Assembly (NCBI GenBank): GCA_030636255.1
Contig: DAOVXH010000001.1
Span: 1 to 33,296, forward strand
Length of the DNA: 33,296 nucleotides
Reading direction: 5' to 3'
Origin: Methanomassiliicoccales archaeon
GTDB taxonomy: Archaea > Thermoplasmatota > Thermoplasmata > SG8-5
Positions 11,300-21,054 of this stretch are shown piece by piece. The number at the start of each line of letters is the position of its first letter. Positions within the stretch are counted from its first letter, which is position 1. Under the pieces are notes generated by a model. It was given only the letters and a program-made list of their open reading frames with translations, had not been told where the DNA came from and ran no database searches. A program made the translations under genes and the position numbers.

Positions 11300-12022
11300 C
11301 TATTTTTTGCTAATTACAGGGGGAGGCGGTGGCGGAGTGGGCATATCAGAGTTTAATCCATCTGGGAACAGTATTGGATAAATATCCCTGGAAAGCATCT
11401 CCATGTCCTTTCTGTACTTCAGGTAGCTTAGGAATATCAATAAGATTCCGATGATTGTCTGAAATCCAGATAAAATCAGAACTTCTGGTTCGTAAAGGGT
11501 GTTAATGAACGTGATACCAAGCAGCAACAGTATGATACCAATGATTATTATTGAGCCATAATATATCTGAAATATTTCCACAAGAGAGCGTTTCATCAGA
11601 GTGCTTCCCTCGGATAATTTGCTCTGAAAATCAATATACAATTGCATACGATTCCACCAGCTTTTCTTTCCCAGGGTGGTGTAGATGTATAGATAGACAA
11701 TCAGCAACAATGCCATGGCAATGGAAAGGTTCAGTGCACCACGGACAAGGTTTTGTGTGCTGTTGTAGGACTCAAATGATAAATACAGCTGGAAAACACC
11801 AATGGCAACAAGAATTCCAGATACCCCACAGATAGCACCCACTATTAGTTTCATGATGTTCAGGATAGACCTCTTGGACACTGCATCCACTCCTGGCATG
11901 TTCTTCATGGGATAACGGTATATTCTACAAGCATGACAGTACCAGTTGTTCATTTCTGAGTAATAAATCATTTCCTTGTGACACTTTGGGCAGCTCTCGG
12001 ACATATTGCACTCTCCAAGCAT
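11300..12022 (-). CDS. zinc-ribbon membrane protein with polyproline C-terminus (function unknown)
   Basis: 240 aa. An N-terminal CPKCHK...YCHACR zinc ribbon is followed by about four hydrophobic helices and a C-terminal PTPPPPPPV tail. Confidence 0.6.
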   Translation of the reverse strand: MLGECNMSESCPKCHKEMIYYSEMNNWYCHACRIYRYPMKNMPGVDAVSKRSILNIMKLIVGAICGVSGILVAIGVFQLYLSFESYNSTQNLVRGALNLSIAMALLLIVYLYIYTTLGKKSWWNRMQLYIDFQSKLSEGSTLMKRSLVEIFQIYYGSIIIIGIILLLLGITFINTLYEPEVLILSGFQTIIGILLIFLSYLKYRKDMEMLSRDIYPILFPDGLNSDMPTPPPPPPVISKK

Positions 12023-13223: not shown

Positions 13224-16200
13224 TCAATCCTTGAACTTTTCCATATTATGATTGTACTGGGCTTCAGACAGACGACCTTCATCAAATGCTTTTTGAATTC
13301 TCACCCTGGCTGCTTCTTTATCAATTCCCGGGGAAGATTCTTGAACTGGCTCTGCTGGTTCCTTCATGGGTTTTTCTTCTTCTGGCAATTCATCCTTCTT
13401 CTTGGGTTTACCGGGCTTTTCCCTGCTGGTCAATACAATCACAAGTGCTGCAATAGCAATTCCAGATAACAGTACCACGTCAATCCATTTTGGTCGAGTG
13501 TCAGTTTCTATTTCAGAGGTATGGCCGCCGTCATCAACTGGACTCAGTTCAATCTCATAAAATTCTGTGATATTTTCATTACCATATACATCTGTAGCTA
13601 TTATTCTGTAATGGAAGTCTGTGTGGTCCAGTCCCACAGGGTATGCCTCTGCGGTGTAGGTATTGCCATCAGTATTGTTCATGTCAATGATGAAGTATGG
13701 AGAACAGGCCTGGGGCGTGCATGAAAAGTATGACATCTGTACTGATTCTATTTCACTGGTATCGCCCACCATAATCTCGATGCTTATCTGCTGGTCTGCA
13801 TCTGGGTGGTCTGGAGCATATGTTGGATTGATTATCTGCGGTGGCGCAATGTCATCCTTTACATCGACCTCAACAGTGGAATATGTTTGTATTGTAAGGT
13901 CAGAAACATCAATGGCATGAACCTTGAATTTGTCTGTCTGGCCGTTCCATGTGATGTTTCCGGTAACTGCCAGGTCGAAGCTTGTGCTGGACTCTGCAGG
14001 AATGGAAAGCGAGATCTGGGAAAACTCTGTGTCCCAGTTTGATGGGGCATCCACAGAAAGATTGACTGTAACCTGGAAATACATGTAATTGTGAAGAGTG
14101 AATTCAAATTCTGCCGTGCTATTTGGCAATGCGGATTTTTCTGGTTCCTGGGCAATCATGTAAAGCTCATCTTCACCTTCTGGAACAATCATGAAACTGT
14201 TTACCTGAACACCATTCTGCCAGGCAACTACTACTAGGCCAATATTTCCAAGCCGTAAATCATTGAACTGAACTGCTGAGGTATTGGTCCATGAGCTTTC
14301 AATATCAAGTGTCTCGCCTGCTGGAACAGTGTATGTGTCGTTTACAAGGATGTCAATAAAAGCGTTTGGTATCGGATGGCCCTGATAATTAAGCCAGCGT
14401 GATGATTTCTCCACAAGGAATGCTTCCACAAGAATTGTTTCATCAGAATCTCCGTGATTGCCAATTGATACAACTGTGCCCAGTATTCTTGAAAGGTCAG
14501 TAAACTGGCCTCCGAATGTCAAATTCAAATCTGCCATACTTGTTGATTTAATTTCTGTCAGGTATTCATTGTATGCTGATGAAGCACTGGATGCGCCAAT
14601 TATCTCCCCTGGACCCCCGGCAAACACTGCCCAGGGGTGACCAATATCACCATCTATATTCAGCTTATTCGCCAGAGTCTCCTCTCTGTAAGACGCATAC
14701 TGGCCAGATAGGCCCGGAGCATCTGTTACAAAGGTTGCAAAAGAAGTTTCTCCCTCCTTTTCAAGATCTACAAGGGCATCCTCACTCTTATTGCAATTGA
14801 CACATCCCAGATCAACATAAAGTTCAGTGAACACTAGCTTGTCTGATGGCACAATTGGACCTATTGGGCTGTCAGTTATAACATGCCTAGCTAATGCATC
14901 TGCAAGTGATGTGTTAAGGTTCTCTCGCTTGCTGGCTCCCTGGTCTGCCGATGAACCATACTGGGTATTGTAGATTATTTCCGGTTCAGTACCGTTCATT
15001 TCCACGATTATGGTTGTGAACATTGGCACTCCAAATCGTGAGTCAGGGGAACCAGCAAAGTCATAGACATCGTAACTTGCGTCTTCCTCTGCTGTTGCAT
15101 GGTCCAGGTTGATGTGGACGAACTCAATTTCATTGCCATATTCCTCTTCCAGAATGGCAATATGCGGCTCCATCTCATCGCAACCTGAACACACATCAGT
15201 ACGATAATGCAAGAATACTGGTTGGGTTGGAAGGACTTCTGTTACTAAGGTAGGTTGCGTCCCTTCAGAAGAGCGCCATTCATTCACAACATTTGGGTCA
15301 AGGGCCAGACAGCCAAGGCAAGGTATGGCGTTTATCTCGTCAGTTCGGTCATATCCGCCCATCATGACTCCGGCAGTAAGCATTGACGCGCTTCCAAGAA
15401 GGAGAACTATCCAGATAACTGCCATTTTATTGTTCTTGAAAGGCATTATTCCTAATTTTAATGAGCCAAATTTACAGCTGGTAACACATCTGCCGCAGAG
15501 AATGCACTCCATGTCCTCTTTTGTGCCTACCTGCTTGATATCCATTGGACATGTAGCATCACAGACATTGCAACTCTTGCATGTGTCTTCATTGCGCCGC
15601 ACCCCAATGGCAGAGACCTTGTTCCAGGGAGCCAGGTATGCTCCAATAGGGCAGAGATACTTGCACCAGCCTCTTGTTACCAGAATAATTAGAATAGTGA
15701 AAAGAATCATTGATGTAAGCTTCACAGGGAAGCCGCTTCCAAACAGCCATTCGCTTGAATAAAATGTCAGGGTGGGAAGTGTGCCGGTTATTCCCCCAAT
15801 GGGGCATAATGCCGTGTAAAACAGCTCCTGAGAGAGAAATGCAGTGACAGGTACAGCCAGGAGCATTAGAAACTTCATGTGTTTCCATTTTGGATTCACA
15901 TTTGGTTTGAGCTTATTATCCACTTTTTTACTTATACCCAGTTTTCTTGATAAGTCCTGAAGTGCACCAATTGGACATGCCCAGCCACAGAACGCCCTGC
16001 CAAAAAGTACACCCATGAGGGACAGGAATCCAAAAAGGTAAAGCAGCATTGAGAGGCCTACCATGAAGGTTATCTGGATATCAATGAACCCATGCTCCAT
16101 TATGCCAAGAGGGCAAGAACCAACATCCCAGGGGCATGAATAGCAGAAGAAATAGGGATAGATGAGACCAGTGGTGGTTATGCCTGCCAGGCCCAGCAAG

Positions 16201-16253
16201 GTAATTGCCAGAAATGCAATCTGGGTTGTCCTTCTCAGTGTGGGGATTTTCAA
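13224..16253 (-). CDS. giant membrane protein: NapH/NosR/MauN-like polyferredoxin membrane module, two extracytoplasmic CxxC thioredoxin-fold domains, Ig-like domains, C-terminal TM and a SHOCT-like cytoplasmic tail
   Basis: CxxxCP(L/I)G-type motifs lie beside TM helices: CPWDVGSCPLG, FCGWACPIGALQD, LCPIGG, RGWCKYLCPIGA. Two ferredoxin motifs follow, CKSCNVCDATCP and CILCGRCVTSC, then a TM helix (MAVIWIVLLLGSASML). After that come CLGC (15309-15320), CSGC (15180-15191) and CVNC (14793-14804) in Trx-like contexts. The last TM helix is WIDVVLLSGIAIAALVIVLT. The start is uncertain: TTG 16253 is preceded by GAGG and lies just after the upstream stop, while the maximal ORF opens at TTG 16307. Confidence 0.8.
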   Translation of the reverse strand: MKIPTLRRTTQIAFLAITLLGLAGITTTGLIYPYFFCYSCPWDVGSCPLGIMEHGFIDIQITFMVGLSMLLYLFGFLSLMGVLFGRAFCGWACPIGALQDLSRKLGISKKVDNKLKPNVNPKWKHMKFLMLLAVPVTAFLSQELFYTALCPIGGITGTLPTLTFYSSEWLFGSGFPVKLTSMILFTILIILVTRGWCKYLCPIGAYLAPWNKVSAIGVRRNEDTCKSCNVCDATCPMDIKQVGTKEDMECILCGRCVTSCKFGSLKLGIMPFKNNKMAVIWIVLLLGSASMLTAGVMMGGYDRTDEINAIPCLGCLALDPNVVNEWRSSEGTQPTLVTEVLPTQPVFLHYRTDVCSGCDEMEPHIAILEEEYGNEIEFVHINLDHATAEEDASYDVYDFAGSPDSRFGVPMFTTIIVEMNGTEPEIIYNTQYGSSADQGASKRENLNTSLADALARHVITDSPIGPIVPSDKLVFTELYVDLGCVNCNKSEDALVDLEKEGETSFATFVTDAPGLSGQYASYREETLANKLNIDGDIGHPWAVFAGGPGEIIGASSASSAYNEYLTEIKSTSMADLNLTFGGQFTDLSRILGTVVSIGNHGDSDETILVEAFLVEKSSRWLNYQGHPIPNAFIDILVNDTYTVPAGETLDIESSWTNTSAVQFNDLRLGNIGLVVVAWQNGVQVNSFMIVPEGEDELYMIAQEPEKSALPNSTAEFEFTLHNYMYFQVTVNLSVDAPSNWDTEFSQISLSIPAESSTSFDLAVTGNITWNGQTDKFKVHAIDVSDLTIQTYSTVEVDVKDDIAPPQIINPTYAPDHPDADQQISIEIMVGDTSEIESVQMSYFSCTPQACSPYFIIDMNNTDGNTYTAEAYPVGLDHTDFHYRIIATDVYGNENITEFYEIELSPVDDGGHTSEIETDTRPKWIDVVLLSGIAIAALVIVLTSREKPGKPKKKDELPEEEKPMKEPAEPVQESSPGIDKEAARVRIQKAFDEGRLSEAQYNHNMEKFKD

Positions 16254-16266
16254 TTCAAGGCCTCGC

Positions 16267-18513
16267 TCATGATTTAGATCCAGGATATATAAGTACCACT
16301 GCAACAAGGATTGCGGCTATGGCAATTATTGCAATTACTGCCATTGTAGATGGGTCCTGAGTCTCTGCTTCATGCTCTGAGATTTCCGGATTGAGTGGTG
16401 CGGCATCATCTTCATCAAGAACACCGTCATCATCATCGTCGTCATCCTCATTGTTTCCAATGCCGTCATCATCGGTGTCTGTGTCCTCATTTTCATCCAG
16501 AGGGAATGCGTCTTCAGCATTTTCCACACCATCGCCATCAATGTCTGCATCTTCACCATTATTTGTGCCATCATTGTCAGTGTCCAGTGGCATTGTGTCC
16601 GAGATATCTGGAATTCCATCGCCATCATCGTCCTGGTCCATTGAATTCACAAGTCCATCATTGTCAGTGTCCATTGGGTACGGGTCCTCTGTGGCATCAT
16701 CCAGACCGTCACTGTCATCGTCCAGGTCTGCATTGTCACCTATATCATCACCATCATAGTCTGCCCATTCGGTATCGTCCAGTGGGAAAGCATCCAGATC
16801 ATTGTTAACATCATCGCCATCAATATCCTGGTCTGAATTATCACCAATGTCATCACCATCCAGGTCAGACCATTCGGTGGAGTTCAGTGGGAAGGCATCT
16901 TCATTGTCAGGGACATCGTCATTATCATCATCTTCATCCTCATTGTCACCTGTTTCATCGCCGTCTGTATCTGTGGTTTCATCAGGGTTCAATGGAAAAT
17001 CATCTTCCGAGTCAGGAACACCGTCATCATCGTCATCCAGGTCATCAATATCTGCGGTTCCATCGCCATCAAAATCTTCCAGAACTTCAAATTCTTTCCA
17101 GGCAATATTGTTCAGCTCGGAGCTTTCTTCTATCTCTCCTGCAGGGTCAGCCTCAACGGTTATGTTGTGGGTTCCAATTACCTGGAGCCAGGTAAGACCA
17201 TTTTCCATCCATTCACCTGGTGCAATTGTGTATCTGCTGGAATCCAGCAACTCACCATCCAGGGAAATATTTATCTGGGCATCCACAGCAGTTGCGATAC
17301 CATAATTGTAAACTGCAATTCCAACATGAAGGTCCACACCACCTACCTGGTTACCTGTCAATGTGATGTTCAATGGAGATGCAACCAAATCAGGTAAAGG
17401 CACAGCAACAACCATGAATACAGTATCATTCCAGGCAGTTATGCTGTATGTTGGACATACTGCTGTTATATTTACAGTGAAATCTCCGGTAATATTGGGA
17501 GAATTAATCTGTGCAGCATAATCACCATTGGCATCGGTTGCAACAATCCAGGAATCTCCGGTCTCTGGTATTTCCACTGTGACTTCCAGGCCTGCTGGTG
17601 CCGGTGCTCCGTCCAGTGTCACTGTTCCACTTGCCCATAATTGCTGCTCTGGGAGTGTTGTGGTTGTATTCAAATGCAAACTGGCATCAATTACAGGCAA
17701 AACCACATCAAATTGCGGTTCCGCATATCCAGTTATGCTTCTCACAACAGTATCATTCTGCACCGTGATATTCACTTCATATGAATCAGGGGTGGTTGGT
17801 GCAGTTATTTGAAGACTGTAATTTCCCTCAAGGTCTGTCTTCAGCTCATGGGTGTCGCCTCCTACCTTGATTGTGACATTTGTGGTTTCCATTGGAATTG
17901 TGTTGTTCCATGCCCCGGCCTCGGAATAGGTATGATTTGCAGTTCCATTTATCCATACATCCTGGCCTGGGTAAACTGTTGTAGGTTCAACCTGGGCAGT
18001 TACCTCTGTGTTTGTTGGAGGATTCTGAAATGTTCCCGAATTAATAGTAGCGTTCTCTGGCCACCAGAATACCTGGCCAGTGTCATCTTCAAATGTGATA
18101 TTGTAATTGACATAAATACCAGCCCCCCAGGAATCATCATTCCACCAGGACTTGTACCATAATCCGTATAGATTGCCACCCAAATGATCCATATCATCCT
18201 GGTACCATCCATAACATGCAGGAGAAAACATGGCAAGGCATTCGGCCGGAGTGCAGAATTCATTATTCACCTGGACCCTGACCAGAGGATTATCACTATC
18301 TATCTCTGCATAAATATATAGTTGATCCCCATCATTGCCCCAATCTGGAGTGTCTGGCCATATGAATCCTACGGGATTCTCCGGCACCTGGGTGATATTA
18401 CTCACACTAATAGAATTGGTGGTTGTTGGAATTTCGCTCGCTTGTGCAAGACCTATGAAAAACCCGGACATAAGAAGAAATCCAAGTATCATACTAGCTA
18501 TTCTAAACTTCAT
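16267..18513 (-). CDS. surface protein: signal peptide, beta-sandwich domains, CARDB domain, thrombospondin type 3 (Ca-binding) repeat array, C-terminal TM anchor
   Basis: The signal-like N-terminus is MKFRIASMILGFLLMSGFFIGLAQA. Two CarboxypepD_reg-like segments are present (TDLEGNYSLQI, TDANGDYAAQI). A CARDB-like segment follows (PDLVASPLNITL...NYGIATAVDAQINISLDG...ELNNIAW). Six or more DAFPLD..(E/T)W.D.DGDDIGDN units follow, then a C-terminal hydrophobic helix AVIAIIAIAAILVAVVLI. ATG 18513 lies 5 nt after GGTGA; the ORF track starts at GTG 18522. Confidence 0.85.
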   Translation of the reverse strand: MKFRIASMILGFLLMSGFFIGLAQASEIPTTTNSISVSNITQVPENPVGFIWPDTPDWGNDGDQLYIYAEIDSDNPLVRVQVNNEFCTPAECLAMFSPACYGWYQDDMDHLGGNLYGLWYKSWWNDDSWGAGIYVNYNITFEDDTGQVFWWPENATINSGTFQNPPTNTEVTAQVEPTTVYPGQDVWINGTANHTYSEAGAWNNTIPMETTNVTIKVGGDTHELKTDLEGNYSLQITAPTTPDSYEVNITVQNDTVVRSITGYAEPQFDVVLPVIDASLHLNTTTTLPEQQLWASGTVTLDGAPAPAGLEVTVEIPETGDSWIVATDANGDYAAQINSPNITGDFTVNITAVCPTYSITAWNDTVFMVVAVPLPDLVASPLNITLTGNQVGGVDLHVGIAVYNYGIATAVDAQINISLDGELLDSSRYTIAPGEWMENGLTWLQVIGTHNITVEADPAGEIEESSELNNIAWKEFEVLEDFDGDGTADIDDLDDDDDGVPDSEDDFPLNPDETTDTDGDETGDNEDEDDDNDDVPDNEDAFPLNSTEWSDLDGDDIGDNSDQDIDGDDVNNDLDAFPLDDTEWADYDGDDIGDNADLDDDSDGLDDATEDPYPMDTDNDGLVNSMDQDDDGDGIPDISDTMPLDTDNDGTNNGEDADIDGDGVENAEDAFPLDENEDTDTDDDGIGNNEDDDDDDDGVLDEDDAAPLNPEISEHEAETQDPSTMAVIAIIAIAAILVAVVLIYPGSKS
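16384..17079 (-). repeat. tandem imperfect coding repeats (thrombospondin type 3 / DxDxDGxxDxxD calcium-binding units), ~232 codons
   Basis: Repeated D(A/D)FPL(N/D)...D.DGD.IGDN.D.D.DGD units are visible in the translation. The DNA is GAT/GAC-rich with matching periodicity. The opposite strand yields long Ser- and His-rich pseudo-ORFs. Confidence 0.85.
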
Positions 18514-18571
18514 TATATTCACCTATTTTTAATGGAATTTGTGAGAGATTAAGTATTTCAAATATTAAAAG

Positions 18572-18602
18572 ATGAGAGAGGGGACAGTGCCCCCCATCTC
18601 AT
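18572..18602 (-). terminator. hairpin plus T-run immediately downstream of the 806-aa gene
   Basis: On the minus strand the sequence reads TAA-ATA-ATGAGA-TG-GGGG-gcactgt-CCCC-TC-TCTCAT-C-TTTT. Two stem segments (6 bp and 4 GC pairs) are followed by TTTTAATATTT. The promoter and GGTGA of the 751-aa gene follow. Confidence 0.55.
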
Positions 18603-18605
18603 TAT

Positions 18606-21023
18606 TTAGACGTCTACAGTCCAGATTACAAATGCATCTACATGTATCCAGTATGCATTACCCTCTGCCAGGTCTACCTGAGTCAAATCACTCTCGTCAA
18701 CAATATATGGTGATGCTGCCTGGTATTCTGCAATCCTATCTGCTCCAGTTCCAAGCAATGAGTCAAAGGCATTTTCACCAATTGCTGATGGATATCCAAC
18801 AAGATTCCAGCCAGGATAGAGCGTGACTCCCACCGGGGCTGCCGAGTAATCGCCATCAATGCCTGTTGTCAGGACTCCGCCATCATGGGCAGTCAAGTGA
18901 AGCCAAATACCCATGCTGTTGGTGAGCATTGGCATGTCACTGAGACCAGGGCTATTTCTGCTGTGTGTCCTCCAAGGATGAAGTGTGTCATTTGCATCAA
19001 ACCACTTGGCAATATCCCATGTTGTGCCTCCATCTGCATCTGTAAGTACTGTCTCAATATCCCCGGTCATAGCATATGGGAATGAGACAAATACCCAGCT
19101 TCCTGGGCCTGCTGCTACAGGAATCGGAATGTCATACGGAGCCAAGATAGGTTCCACACCGGAGCCTATGGTGAAATCAAAATTGCTTATATCTTCGGTT
19201 ACCAAACTCTCTGAGTCTGTGGCAACTACCCTTATCCTGCAGACAGACGAATCAATACTTGGTGTTGTCCAATAGTGAATTCCATCATTGACAGTTCCGG
19301 TTGTGATTGCCTGCCATGTTGCTGTTGGGTAATCCGTACAATAATAGATGTCTATTCCATTTTCAGGAATATCAACATCATGTGCATCCCATCGGATGAT
19401 TACATCCTCTGCCTGGGCAAATGTCTCGCCGCCATTGGGGAACGTGACTTCAACCTCTGGAGGTATTGCCGCATTCTGCCAGGTTAGAATTCTTGTTAGA
19501 ACAGTTTCATCATCAGAATCTGCATCGATGGTATCGGTCATGACGAAATAATCACCGCCAAAGAATACTGTCCTTCCACCGCCTGAGTGAATCGAACGAA
19601 CTGCCATGTTTGGACCATTGTCATAAGTGAAACAGACAGTGCCACCTATTTCTGCGGTAATAGAGTCTGGAGTACCTGCACTGGTGTTCACAGGAAGACC
19701 CGAAAGTCCGTCACCAATTGGATCGCTTGCAATACCATTGAATGATGTACCACCGGAATCACCTGCAGCAAATGAGGTTTTGAAATTCGTTTGAAGCCAT
19801 GAGTTCCAGCCATTGGAATTTGCGTCCTCAGCTATGTTTGAACCTGTGAGGAATGCATTACCACCGCCAATCAAATAGTCCTGAAGATTAGTTCTGTCTG
19901 CCACATCAAGTGTTGTGGTATCAGGGCCAGTATACCAGATTACAGTTGAATATTTCTGTAGGTCTGCCAGGGTAGGCATGGTCTTAACATTTAGAAGGGC
20001 TGTATCAGTTGCTTCAATTGTGTCCCAGGTTCTGGCCTTTACTCCAATTTTAACCAGTTCTTCTACAATATAGTCTGCATTGTCATCAATGGCATCGGTT
20101 CCATCACCATTAACCAGTAAAACCTCTGCATCCACAAATTCGTGCTTGGCTGCTTGAAGTATCGGAAAATTGTGATAGGTATCTTTACCTTGTTTGTAAT
20201 CGTAATTTGTTGTGGATTGAACCATTGTAACTGCGGAAATATCTCTGGGATCCATGTCAGGATACCATGCGGGGTCAAGTGCAAATGAGATATTGTACTC
20301 AAGGTGTGTCCCAACACCGATTCCGCCAGGAAGGGCTATAGGATCTAGGATATCCCTGCAAACGCCATTGTAAACCCTGTGATGGCCATATACTTCATTT
20401 GTATTGGCATCGAAGTGATGTTTTGTGGATTCCATTATCACAGTGGTGAGTTCCAGGGAGCTTTCTGTAGGAACATCAGTAAAATCAAGGATAACATGCA
20501 GATTGCCGTTCAATCCCTCGATATCTCCCTCAATATCAATTGTGCATGGGGCTCCTGCTCCTGCGCCAGTTGTTTCCTCTAGGTAGTCGGCTTTGTCAGC
20601 AACATATACATCATATTTATCATAACCTCCAGAGCCCCTTAAGTGTATATCTGTGTACGGGCCACCGCCATCAAATATTACAGATGGAATTCCAGGAACT
20701 GCGTATTTATTTGCCCTAGGAATTACATCTGGAACGGTAAATTCATCAGATGTGTGGTATTCAATTATTATGGGCCCATTTGGGTAATATTCTTCATATA
20801 ATCTTTCCATTGAATGTGTCTGTGTTGGACAATAAGGACACCAATCAGATGTGAATTGTTCGACAACTACAGTTCTGGGAGAAGAACCTGCATATATCAC
20901 TGGTGGCTCGTCAATTACATCAACTGAAGTCTCGCCTGTATCTGTTCCCGCACTCACCAACGCTAACCCACTCATAATCATAGAGATAGCAAGTATGCTT
21001 GCCATCAACTTAATACCCTTCAT
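18606..21023 (-). CDS. secreted protein: Omp28-like/thioredoxin-fold CPYC domain, GATase1/ThuA-like domain, Ig-like domain, and a 176-aa C-terminal domain shared with the S8 protease
   Basis: The signal-like N-terminus is MKGIKLMASILAISMIMSGLALVSA. VVVEQFTSDWCPYCP contains the CPYC at 20829-20840. The KYSTVIWYTGPD...LQDYLIGGGNAFLTG pattern follows, then FPNGGETF...IRWD. The C-terminus ends GNAYWIHVDAFVIWTVDV. ATG 21023 lies 7 nt after GGAGG; the ORF track starts one codon earlier at TTG 21026. Confidence 0.85.
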   Translation of the reverse strand: MKGIKLMASILAISMIMSGLALVSAGTDTGETSVDVIDEPPVIYAGSSPRTVVVEQFTSDWCPYCPTQTHSMERLYEEYYPNGPIIIEYHTSDEFTVPDVIPRANKYAVPGIPSVIFDGGGPYTDIHLRGSGGYDKYDVYVADKADYLEETTGAGAGAPCTIDIEGDIEGLNGNLHVILDFTDVPTESSLELTTVIMESTKHHFDANTNEVYGHHRVYNGVCRDILDPIALPGGIGVGTHLEYNISFALDPAWYPDMDPRDISAVTMVQSTTNYDYKQGKDTYHNFPILQAAKHEFVDAEVLLVNGDGTDAIDDNADYIVEELVKIGVKARTWDTIEATDTALLNVKTMPTLADLQKYSTVIWYTGPDTTTLDVADRTNLQDYLIGGGNAFLTGSNIAEDANSNGWNSWLQTNFKTSFAAGDSGGTSFNGIASDPIGDGLSGLPVNTSAGTPDSITAEIGGTVCFTYDNGPNMAVRSIHSGGGRTVFFGGDYFVMTDTIDADSDDETVLTRILTWQNAAIPPEVEVTFPNGGETFAQAEDVIIRWDAHDVDIPENGIDIYYCTDYPTATWQAITTGTVNDGIHYWTTPSIDSSVCRIRVVATDSESLVTEDISNFDFTIGSGVEPILAPYDIPIPVAAGPGSWVFVSFPYAMTGDIETVLTDADGGTTWDIAKWFDANDTLHPWRTHSRNSPGLSDMPMLTNSMGIWLHLTAHDGGVLTTGIDGDYSAAPVGVTLYPGWNLVGYPSAIGENAFDSLLGTGADRIAEYQAASPYIVDESDLTQVDLAEGNAYWIHVDAFVIWTVDV
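18609..19139 (-). repeat. dispersed coding repeat, copy 1 (C-terminal domain shared with 26449-26976)
   Basis: The two C-termini align end to end. About two thirds of residues are identical by eye, and similarity is visible at the DNA level. Confidence 0.85.
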
Positions 21024-21054
21024 CAATTTTCCTCCAATCTCTTATTCTTATTAT

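Follow-up and report, generated by a model that had tools for sequence, protein, structure and literature searches.

What could an iron-sulfur (Fe-S) membrane module of the NapH type be doing on the same polypeptide chain as two extracytoplasmic thioredoxin folds? The question is raised by a gene on the minus strand (13224-16307) of a 33,296-nucleotide stretch of DNA from a Methanomassiliicoccales archaeon (GenBank assembly GCA_030636255.1, contig DAOVXH010000001.1, positions 1 to 33,296), hereafter called the window. A first-pass annotation, made from the sequence alone, had described this fusion and had proposed that it carries electrons across the membrane to surface thiols. The comparative analysis presented here revealed that a NapH-like module, a membrane-proximal external CxxC motif and one or more external thioredoxin (Trx) folds with a CxxC motif are an evolutionarily obligate unit. 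It is fairly likely that the protein functions as a single-chain Fe-S transmembrane conduit reducing external Trx-fold proteins, which would do the job of DsbD/CcdA.

Architecture of the fused protein

The minus strand between 13224 and 16307 forms a single open reading frame (ORF), which encodes 1027 amino acids (aa) from the first in-frame start, TTG 16307. A start at this codon would overlap the upstream gene by 41 nucleotides. The true start is probably TTG 16247, giving a protein of 1007 aa (MKIPTLRRTTQ...), since this codon lies 19 nucleotides past the upstream stop and the resulting N-terminus resembles that of the homologues. The stretch immediately upstream of TTG 16247 reads GAGCGAGG. 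Residue numbers throughout count from TTG 16307. The following features were assigned (TM, transmembrane; Ig, immunoglobulin; pLDDT, predicted local distance difference test):

13224-16307, minus strand: whole ORF, with 24 full-length fused homologues at 39-72% identity
15603-16247, minus strand: NapH-like four-helix module, residues 21-235 (Fer4_5, NapH/MauN, hydropathy, alignment with E. coli NapH)
16104-16145, minus strand: predicted outer loop 1 motif, FFC55-YS-C58-PWDVGS-C65-PLG (conservation; no lysine or arginine in the loop)
15972-15989, minus strand: first canonical CX3CP motif, C107/C111, predicted cytoplasmic (invariant, E. coli NapH included; ten lysines plus arginines in the loop)
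15795-15806, minus strand: predicted outer loop 2 motif, C168-PIG (cysteine in 33 of 33 modules)
15648-15665, minus strand: second canonical CX3CP motif, C215/C219, predicted cytoplasmic (alignment with E. coli NapH, module conservation)
15453-15602, minus strand: predicted cytoplasmic 2x[4Fe-4S] ferredoxin-type domain, residues 236-285, CKSCNVCDATCP and CILCGRCVTSC (Fer4-type Pfam matches)
15294-15422, minus strand: fifth TM helix (TM5) and juxtamembrane C330-LG-C333-LALDP (C330/C333 invariant in 31 and in 44 sequences)
14883-15245, minus strand: Trx-fold domain 1 (Trx1), residues 355-475, C373-SG-C376, predicted cis-proline P428 (model, Foldseek, profile)
14538-14840, minus strand: Trx-fold domain 2 (Trx2), residues 490-590, C502-VN-C505, predicted cis-proline P558 (model, Foldseek)
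13533-14522, minus strand: about three beta-sandwich (Ig-like) domains, residues 596-925 (DSSP assignment of the AlphaFold model, pLDDT about 90; Foldseek matches to Ig arrays)
13227-13484, minus strand: C-terminal TM helix 942-960 and predicted 67-aa cytoplasmic tail (hydropathy)

The ORF product matched Pfam Fer4_5 (PF12801) in two stretches, with 57.3 bits against a cut-off of 22 (E 1.5e-15), and the best-scoring named family was NCBIfam NapH/MauN (TIGR02163; E 1.8e-24 over residues 94-284). E. coli NapH, at 23% identity, aligns with the module in its four-helix layout and in its two CX3CP and two ferredoxin motifs, so that the NapH-like Fe-S membrane module recognized by the first-pass annotation was confirmed. 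All motifs quoted there are present, and the coordinates of CLGC (residues 330-333, 15309-15320), CSGC (residues 373-376, 15180-15191) and CVNC (residues 502-505, 14793-14804) are exact. The count of four CxxxCP-like motifs needs a distinction: CPWDVGSCPLG (C58/C65), FCGWACPIG (C107/C111), LCPIGG (C168) and WCKYLCPIG (C215/C219) all occur, but only the C107/C111 and C215/C219 motifs are canonical CX3CP and predicted cytoplasmic, and the other two are predicted to lie on the outer face. A CP(I/L/V)G element thus follows each of the four TM helices of the module, twice on the predicted inside and twice on the predicted outside.

The cysteine motif of loop 1 is kept in all 31 complete Thermoplasmatota partner modules, with C58 replaced by asparagine in one of them. 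No cysteine was found at the positions of C55, C58, C65 and C168 in E. coli NapH or in the distant Fer4_5 proteins from the first search. Together with the CLGC pair, these four loop residues bring to six the number of conserved cysteines at the predicted outer membrane surface. Exclusiveness of the outer-loop cysteines to Trx-coupled modules turned out to be only partly true; a search with the NapH-like module alone found the pattern CxxCPx5CP also in a wider NapH-like clade that includes bacterial proteins, whose partner is the CD1871A microprotein described below; some members of the clade have no adjoining Trx gene. In the ferredoxin-type domain all eight cysteines (C243-C253 and C268-C278) are invariant in 33 modules, and the family profile also matched polyferredoxin and PsaC entries of the Protein Data Bank (PDB) in this region.

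Topology was derived from hydropathy and the positive-inside rule. TM helices are predicted at residues 30-48, 83-101, 146-164, 192-215, 297-315 and 942-960. Loops 102-145 and 216-296 are rich in lysine and arginine and are predicted inside; loops 49-82 and 165-191 contain neither residue and are predicted outside. The 626-aa segment between TM5 and TM6 has 102 aspartates plus glutamates against 24 lysines plus arginines, contains 11 N-glycosylation sequons and is likewise predicted outside. The same procedure applied to E. coli NapH as a control gave its accepted topology with four TM helices and the N-terminus inside. All three CxxC motifs (CLGC, CSGC and CVNC) are accordingly predicted to be extracytoplasmic and the ferredoxin domain inside, in agreement with the earlier placement of the CxxC region outside the cell.

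Structural models were obtained with AlphaFold for the full-length protein (mean pLDDT 77.5; 80-95 over residues 290-925) and for residues 318-600 alone (mean pLDDT 88). According to DSSP both Trx domains have the order beta-alpha-beta-alpha-beta-beta-alpha, with the CxxC motif at the N-terminus of helix 1 and a pLDDT of about 90. Trx1 consists of strand 364-369, helix 374-390, strand 395-400, helix 406-415, strands 429-438 and 441-450, and helix 458-474; Trx2 consists of strand 492-498, helix 505-517, strand 521-527, helix 532-548, strands 559-562 and 567-570, and helix 575-588. The cis-proline loops, assigned by their position before strand 3 (GVP428 and HP558), are both invariant. Invariant or near-invariant polar residues (H367, R369, D377, H398, N400 and D402) lie near the CxxC motif of Trx1. 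Searching with the model of residues 318-600, Foldseek returned top matches that were all Trx folds, with target-normalised template-modelling scores of 0.6-0.75, including the tandem-Trx structures ERp72 a0a, PDI b'a' and P. furiosus PDO in addition to thioredoxins. The full-length model gave mostly matches to Ig arrays and was uninformative for the redox domains. In comparisons of the family profile with the PDB, Trx1 matched thioredoxins (1.3e-5), and Trx2 matched entry 2axo (8e-4), a weak profile similarity accompanied by similarity in fold; no Pfam or NCBIfam thioredoxin model matched Trx2.

These results support the Trx fold of the two segments that had been called Trx/Omp28-like, but not the resemblance to Omp28: the models NF033782 and NF045500 matched neither Trx1, Trx2 nor the next beta-sandwich, and BLASTP of Trx2 against the Omp28-like domain of a neighbouring gene product (18606-21026) was not significant. 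Trx1 is present in every short, split and fused form and is the universal partner domain of the family; Trx2 is restricted to long forms and is missing from short forms.

The Ig-like domains, the final TM helix and the tail correspond to the earlier description. The last Ig-like domain contains an invariant C863-x4-C868 pair (CTPQAC, 13704-13721), which is kept even in split long forms and may serve as a structural disulfide or provide an additional site for redox chemistry or metal binding. The cytoplasmic tail (residues 961-1027, 13227-13427) ends in a helix, ARVRIQKAFDEGRLSEAQYNHNMEKF, and gave a weak SHOCT-like match to DUF1707 (E 0.022). This tail is common only to the two closest homologues, and the tails of other homologues are short or unrelated.

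Coupling between NapH-like modules and thioredoxin folds

Besides the 24 full-length fused homologues, the first protein search returned three N-truncated fragments and three genuine split versions. Conservation of the external cysteines, on which the first-pass reading depended, was complete: in an alignment of 31 sequences C330/C333, C373/C376, C502/C505, C863/C868 and both cis-proline positions were invariant. A search with the ectodomain only revealed minimal proteins of about 210-230 aa that consist of a TM helix, the motif C-L-(G/S)-C-x-x-L-x-P and a single Trx1-like domain, and the CLxC pair and the Trx1 CxxC were invariant in 44 sequences including the minimal forms of about 210 aa. 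Among 1.84 billion representative proteins searched by HMMER with this minimal module there were 101 relatives, 73 of them at E<=1e-10, which shows that the TM-CLxC-Trx family is rare.

For a count of coupling in archaea, one genome per species of the Genome Taxonomy Database (GTDB) was scanned with the minimal module. The TM-CLxC-Trx unit was found in 33 species genomes, all of them metagenome-assembled genomes (MAGs) of Thermoplasmatota. In every testable genome (32/32) a NapH-like homologue was either fused to the unit (9 genomes) or encoded directly upstream on the same strand by an overlapping or abutting gene (23 genomes); the 33rd locus ends at a contig edge and is hence not testable. 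Split versions encoded by adjacent genes, which the first-pass annotation had suggested looking for, do therefore exist. The same pairing was seen in the individually inspected loci L001, L002, L009-L012 and L049. In L001 the split partner shares 49% identity with residues 19-294 and stops exactly where TM5 of the fusion starts. Relative to a two- or three-gene module, the window protein is thus a derived form that has been fused and lengthened. The fusion is not the product of misassembly or of a frameshift, since it occurs in 24 protein clusters and in the 9 species genomes.

Some archaeal variants have a ResA-type CEPC motif or a TlpA-like gene beside the NapH-like/Trx pair. In a UBA202-type lineage (L011:2238-2804 and L012:2231-2797), a membrane-anchored TlpA/Redoxin-like protein with the motif WATTCPPC and weak similarity to SCO1/SenC is encoded two genes upstream of the pair, here NapH-like/TM-CLSC-Trx, which is also preceded by a gene for a 160-aa protein without assigned function. 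This arrangement mirrors a bacterial cassette.

In Anaerococcus porci this cassette consists of three overlapping genes, which encode a TM+CxxC microprotein of the CD1871A family, a NapH-like protein with 35% identity to the window module, and a TlpA/ResA-like lipoprotein. The microprotein is the product of a 48-aa ORF upstream, with a TM helix that closes in ...INLCLECVGIG; NCBIfam model NF040920 (CD1871A family CXXC motif-containing protein) recognises it at 2.8e-20. The lipoprotein (304 aa) is encoded downstream with an overlap, and its C-terminal domain scores as ResA/StoA/TlpA/DsbE (6e-14 to 1e-10). The microprotein ORF has 45-50 codons and is easily overlooked by gene callers. Metagenomic loci were tallied for the best 80 of at least 598 relatives of the bacterial clade, many of them from the human gut. 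The microprotein precedes the NapH-like gene in all 76 testable loci, and a TlpA-like gene with the active site WFxxCxPC follows directly downstream in 72 of these 76. A divergent two-component system often adjoins the cassette, which was located in Firmicutes at L047:3868-5786, L083:2380-4378, L131:3874-4846 and L051-L130 and is abundant in human-gut metagenomes. In Peptoclostridium acidaminophilum DSM 3953 the microprotein and a '4Fe-4S binding protein' are encoded adjacently, and a 'TlpA disulfide reductase family protein', as named by the Prokaryotic Genome Annotation Pipeline, lies two genes off. CD1863-CD1870 of C. difficile 630 are described as the conjugation module of CTn5, a conjugative transposon (PMC3158075); judged by locus-tag numbering, the CD1871A type member may belong to an accessory region of this mobile element.

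The genes next to the long form were compared as well. In the window two genes for surface proteins precede it:

16267-18522, minus strand: surface protein with CARDB, acidic thrombospondin-type-3-like repeats and a C-terminal TM anchor; gene 2 of a triad (profile matches)
18606-21026, minus strand: surface protein with an Omp28-related Trx-like domain, WC63-PY-C66; gene 1 of the triad (Omp28_seleno match, synteny)

The product of 18606-21026 matched NCBIfam Omp28_seleno at 1.9e-10, below the cut-off; its CxxC is invariant in 4 orthologues, and it has a conserved C-terminal domain of about 190 aa. Both genes precede the long form, fused or split, in all loci with enough flank (window 16267-21026, minus strand; L004-L008, L014-L023 and L028-L029). 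The triad looks like an operon, and the two surface proteins may be clients of the redox module or act together with it.

On the plus strand (16391-17305), several long ORFs with serine-rich and histidine-rich translations lie opposite the acidic repeats of 16267-18522; the GAT/GAC-rich repeats almost certainly give rise to them as shadow ORFs. A further ORF (11300-12022, minus strand, 240 aa) has a zinc-ribbon-like CxxC...CxxC segment near its N-terminus, several TM helices and, at the C-terminus, a PPPPPPP run; it gave no match in a Pfam search. The gene content of the window is archaeal (proteasome subunit, FttA, aRF1, XPD), and the closest genome in the GTDB species scan was a Thermoplasmatota MAG with 84% identity over the compared segment.

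Proposed electron path and its alternatives

We infer an electron flow, its outward direction, the identity of the donor and a role for the CX3CP motifs and outer cysteines. The cytoplasmic 2x[4Fe-4S] domain would receive electrons from a donor in the cytoplasm, probably ferredoxin, or from the membrane pool, and these electrons would cross the membrane via the CX3CP motifs and the outer-loop cysteines, acting as cluster ligands or as redox-active pairs. TM5 would set the CLGC pair at the outer surface beside C55, C58, C65 and C168. From CLGC, reducing equivalents could pass to Trx1, then to Trx2 and finally to surface or secreted clients by thiol-disulfide exchange, and a likely client would be the co-encoded surface protein with the Omp28-related CxxC domain.

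The reducing direction is fairly likely and better supported than the reverse one, because the bacterial partners fall into the ResA/TlpA/DsbE group, because the Trx domains have no DsbA-type insertion and because ferredoxin-type clusters suit disulfide reduction, as in ferredoxin:thioredoxin reductase (FTR). Characterised members of the ResA/StoA/TlpA/DsbE group are reductants served by CcdA/DsbD. The CEPC motif and the TlpA-like genes of some archaeal variants point the same way. The dipeptides within the CxxC motifs (CSGC, CPGC and CAAC; CVNC, CTYC and others) are too variable to indicate the direction of flow.

Several observations weigh against a reducing Fe-S conduit. Trx1 remained below curated cut-offs (PF00085, 18.7 against 23.5; TrxA, 27.6 against 140), and the AlphaFold model is poor at residues 1-62 and 243-281. 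In the bacterial and some of the archaeal homologues the hydrophobicity of TM1 is low, and loop 1 of the bacterial proteins has several lysines and arginines, which makes the outer placement of its motif less secure there. It would also be unusual for a polytopic protein inserted by Sec to acquire an Fe-S cluster on its outer face. As to the coupling, the 80 bacterial loci are mutually close relatives representing about one clade, a Riflebacteria homologue has the microprotein and no Trx-fold neighbour, and one archaeal NapH-like homologue also has no Trx-fold neighbour. Alignment of the archaeal TM-CLxC segment with CD1871A-type microproteins by hhalign gave 58.6% probability (E 9.5e-5) over 38 columns that include the TM helix, and NF040920 did not match residues 296-345 of the window protein at E<=1. 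The register is the same in both, a helix followed by about 13 residues, CxxC and hydrophobic-G/A-hydrophobic; the correspondence of the archaeal TM5-CLGC segment to the bacterial microprotein is suggestive, and not conclusive for such a short segment. Finally, about half of the long-form loci (L004:11975-12736 and L007:11768-12529, both minus strand; also L015, L019, L021, L022 and L028) have a convergent DsbD_2-family gene right after the long form, and none follows it in the window. Its 253-aa product has the cysteine motifs SCLALCIPS and SIACIGE and may provide a second, thiol-based route serving one of the Trx domains. Where such a gene is adjacent, a conventional thiol route may coexist, leaving room for the NapH-like module as an oxidant.

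A Thermoplasmatota NapH-like homologue that has no Trx neighbour (L048:1-3746, minus strand) lies divergent from two large Fe-S flavoproteins (Fer4_20/Pyr_redox_2 and Fer2_4/Pyr_redox_2), which are candidates for the cytoplasmic electron donor to such membrane modules.

The reverse operation, an oxidative-folding system like DsbB/VKOR in which the Trx domains would oxidise clients and return the electrons through CLGC and the NapH-like module to quinone or to a cytoplasmic acceptor, is unlikely but has several points in its favour. VKOR-Trx fusions show that plain Trx domains can serve as oxidants, a valine precedes the cis-proline of Trx1 as in DsbA, and the window organism encodes many large cysteine-containing surface proteins. 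The DsbD_2-type gene by many long-form loci could be the reducing arm of such a system, leaving the fused protein as its oxidising arm. NapH proper, furthermore, works with the quinone pool (PMC5928378). Against this stand bacterial partners that are ResA/StoA/TlpA/DsbE-like and not DsbA-like, the lack of the DsbA helical insertion in both Trx domains and the retention in Trx1 of the thioredoxin proline five residues past the CxxC. Low-potential ferredoxin-type clusters would be needless for delivering electrons to quinone, and many carriers of the module are anaerobes that live in sediment or gut. A role in metal handling, in which external CxxC/His/Asp sites would bind a metal or reduce it (Cu(II) to Cu(I), for example, or Fe(III)), as with the NapH relative CcoG or with copper delivery by Sco/TlpA, appears improbable. 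In its favour, CcoG, a cupric reductase, belongs to the Fer4_5 polyferredoxins and has an Ig-like domain in the periplasm; the polar residues ringing the CxxC of Trx1, the C-x4-C pair in the last Ig-like domain and the SCO1/SenC similarity of the archaeal TlpA-like neighbour could be read in the same sense. The weak CcoG profile match is, though, marginal (16.9 bits against a cut-off of 316.7) and confined to the CX3CP helix, genes for copper proteins or metal transport did not recur in the neighbourhoods inspected, and ordinary CxxC Trx folds with a cis-proline loop are the signature of thiol-disulfide exchange.

It is finally conceivable, and in our judgement highly improbable, that no relay exists at all and that a structural or adhesion ectodomain, in which the CxxC motifs are structural disulfides or zinc sites, is joined to a NapH-like module unrelated to it in function. 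More than half of the ectodomain is indeed Ig-like, and the gene lies among a cluster of large surface proteins. This is difficult to reconcile with the coupling of NapH-like modules to TM-CLxC-Trx in 32 of 32 genomes, in fused, split and long forms as well as in minimal ones of about 210 aa without any Ig domain, with the recurrence of the same parts in bacteria, and with the position of the CxxC at the canonical active site of both Trx folds. A reducing Fe-S conduit remains the reading that we prefer. In a wider form, this reading amounts to a third, Fe-S-based and ferredoxin-level-driven route of thiol reduction, composed of a NapH-like module, a CD1871A-type CxxC and a Trx acceptor, in both Thermoplasmatota and Firmicutes. 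Such a route would stand beside DsbD/CcdA and apart from the oxidising enzymes DsbB/VKOR, and the window protein would be its natural single-chain form; a proposal of that breadth is about as likely as not. The Fe-S-based route that the first-pass annotation had suggested for this archaeon is largely supported, with function and direction as proposed above, but it is not peculiar to this archaeon, since the module occurs elsewhere in Thermoplasmatota and in Firmicutes.

Comparison with known systems

To our knowledge, all characterised routes that bring reducing equivalents to extracytoplasmic thiols use the thiol-only transporters DsbD/CcdA. In agreement with the earlier statement that no such fusion had been characterised, searches of open-access text turned up no description of a NapH-like/thioredoxin system or of a function of CD1871A, and Pfam and NCBIfam hold no dedicated model of the fusion and offer generic names only. 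What is already known are the building blocks and the general idea of a NapH-like conduit to an external redox carrier. The novelty lies in the type of carrier, in the additional cysteines on the outer side, in a CxxC anchor that resembles the microprotein and in the idea that the system replaces DsbD/CcdA. A NapH-like module wired to Trx folds would be mechanistically different from the known routes and, in anaerobes and archaea, could couple surface thiols directly to ferredoxin or to the membrane pool. It would supply a testable function for the CD1871A microprotein family, which is widespread in bacteria and has only been named, and for the '4Fe-4S binding proteins' encoded beside it, which are abundant in human-gut metagenomes. 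If the proposal is true, the CX3CP motifs of the NapH/NosR/RdhC superfamily would be parts of a cluster-to-disulfide relay across the membrane. The natural fusion fixes the stoichiometry and order of the parts and is thus a good target for structure determination; the bacterial cassette is present in cultured Clostridia, where genetics is possible.

The proposed job, delivery of reducing equivalents to external CxxC Trx folds, is that of DsbD/CcdA with ResA, TlpA, CcmG or Etrx. Full-length DsbD and the window protein both carry external redox domains on the chain of the membrane module, and the partners of the bacterial NapH-like relatives are ResA/TlpA-like. The membrane part, in contrast, belongs to the Fer4_5 polyferredoxins; it has 16 Fe-S-type cysteines, all conserved, and a ferredoxin domain on the cytoplasmic side, which makes a cytoplasmic thioredoxin an unlikely donor, and no match to the DsbD-type core (PF02683/PF13386) was found in the window protein. 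FTR and heterodisulfide reductase carry out Fe-S-driven disulfide reduction, the step needed by the proposed mechanism. The likeness is one of chemistry only, an Fe-S cluster reducing a disulfide: the enzymes in question are soluble or face the cytoplasm, the sequence showed no similarity to FTR, and a weak match to HdrA2 was confined to the ferredoxin motifs.

Membership of NapH/MauN, CcoG/FixG, NosR and DsbD was rejected. The window protein is not NapH/MauN proper (TIGR02163, 86.7 against 213 bits; NF007013, 75.9 against 234 bits), and neither the window nor the homologous loci contain nap or mau genes such as those for the partner NapG or NapA; in comparison with NapH/MauN it has additional cysteines in the outer loops, one more TM helix (the fifth) and an ectodomain of 620 aa. 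CcoG/FixG was dismissed on the TIGR02745 score given above and on Fer4_18 (E 0.06), and NosR and DsbD because their defining domains are missing. In CD1871A a TM helix is followed after about 13 residues by C-x-x-C-(L/V/I)-(G/A)-(L/I), as in the window segment, and a segment of this type is always encoded beside a NapH-like protein of the same clade or forms one chain with it. The bacterial version is a separate protein of about 50 aa whose chain stops at the motif and whose gene precedes that of the NapH-like protein, whereas the window segment follows the NapH-like module and runs on into the Trx domains.

An architectural parallel is given by NosR and PceC (RdhC). NapH-like modules are regarded as modular transmembrane electron conduits to extracytosolic flavin mononucleotide (FMN) domains (PMC8238504). 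NosR holds only eight iron atoms, so that the CX3CP motifs might form disulfides (PMC5928378). NosR and PceC contain the same kind of module with four TM helices and two CX3CP motifs, NosR has a C-terminal 2x[4Fe-4S] domain as well, and in both the module is likewise fused to an extracytoplasmic redox carrier. The four extra cysteines in the predicted outer loops belong to the clade of the window protein; no match to FMN_bind (PF04205) was found in the window protein itself. The carrier of NosR and PceC is an N-terminal flavinylated FMN_bind domain; in the window protein this place is taken by a C-terminal CxxC relay composed of the juxtamembrane CxxC and the Trx domains.

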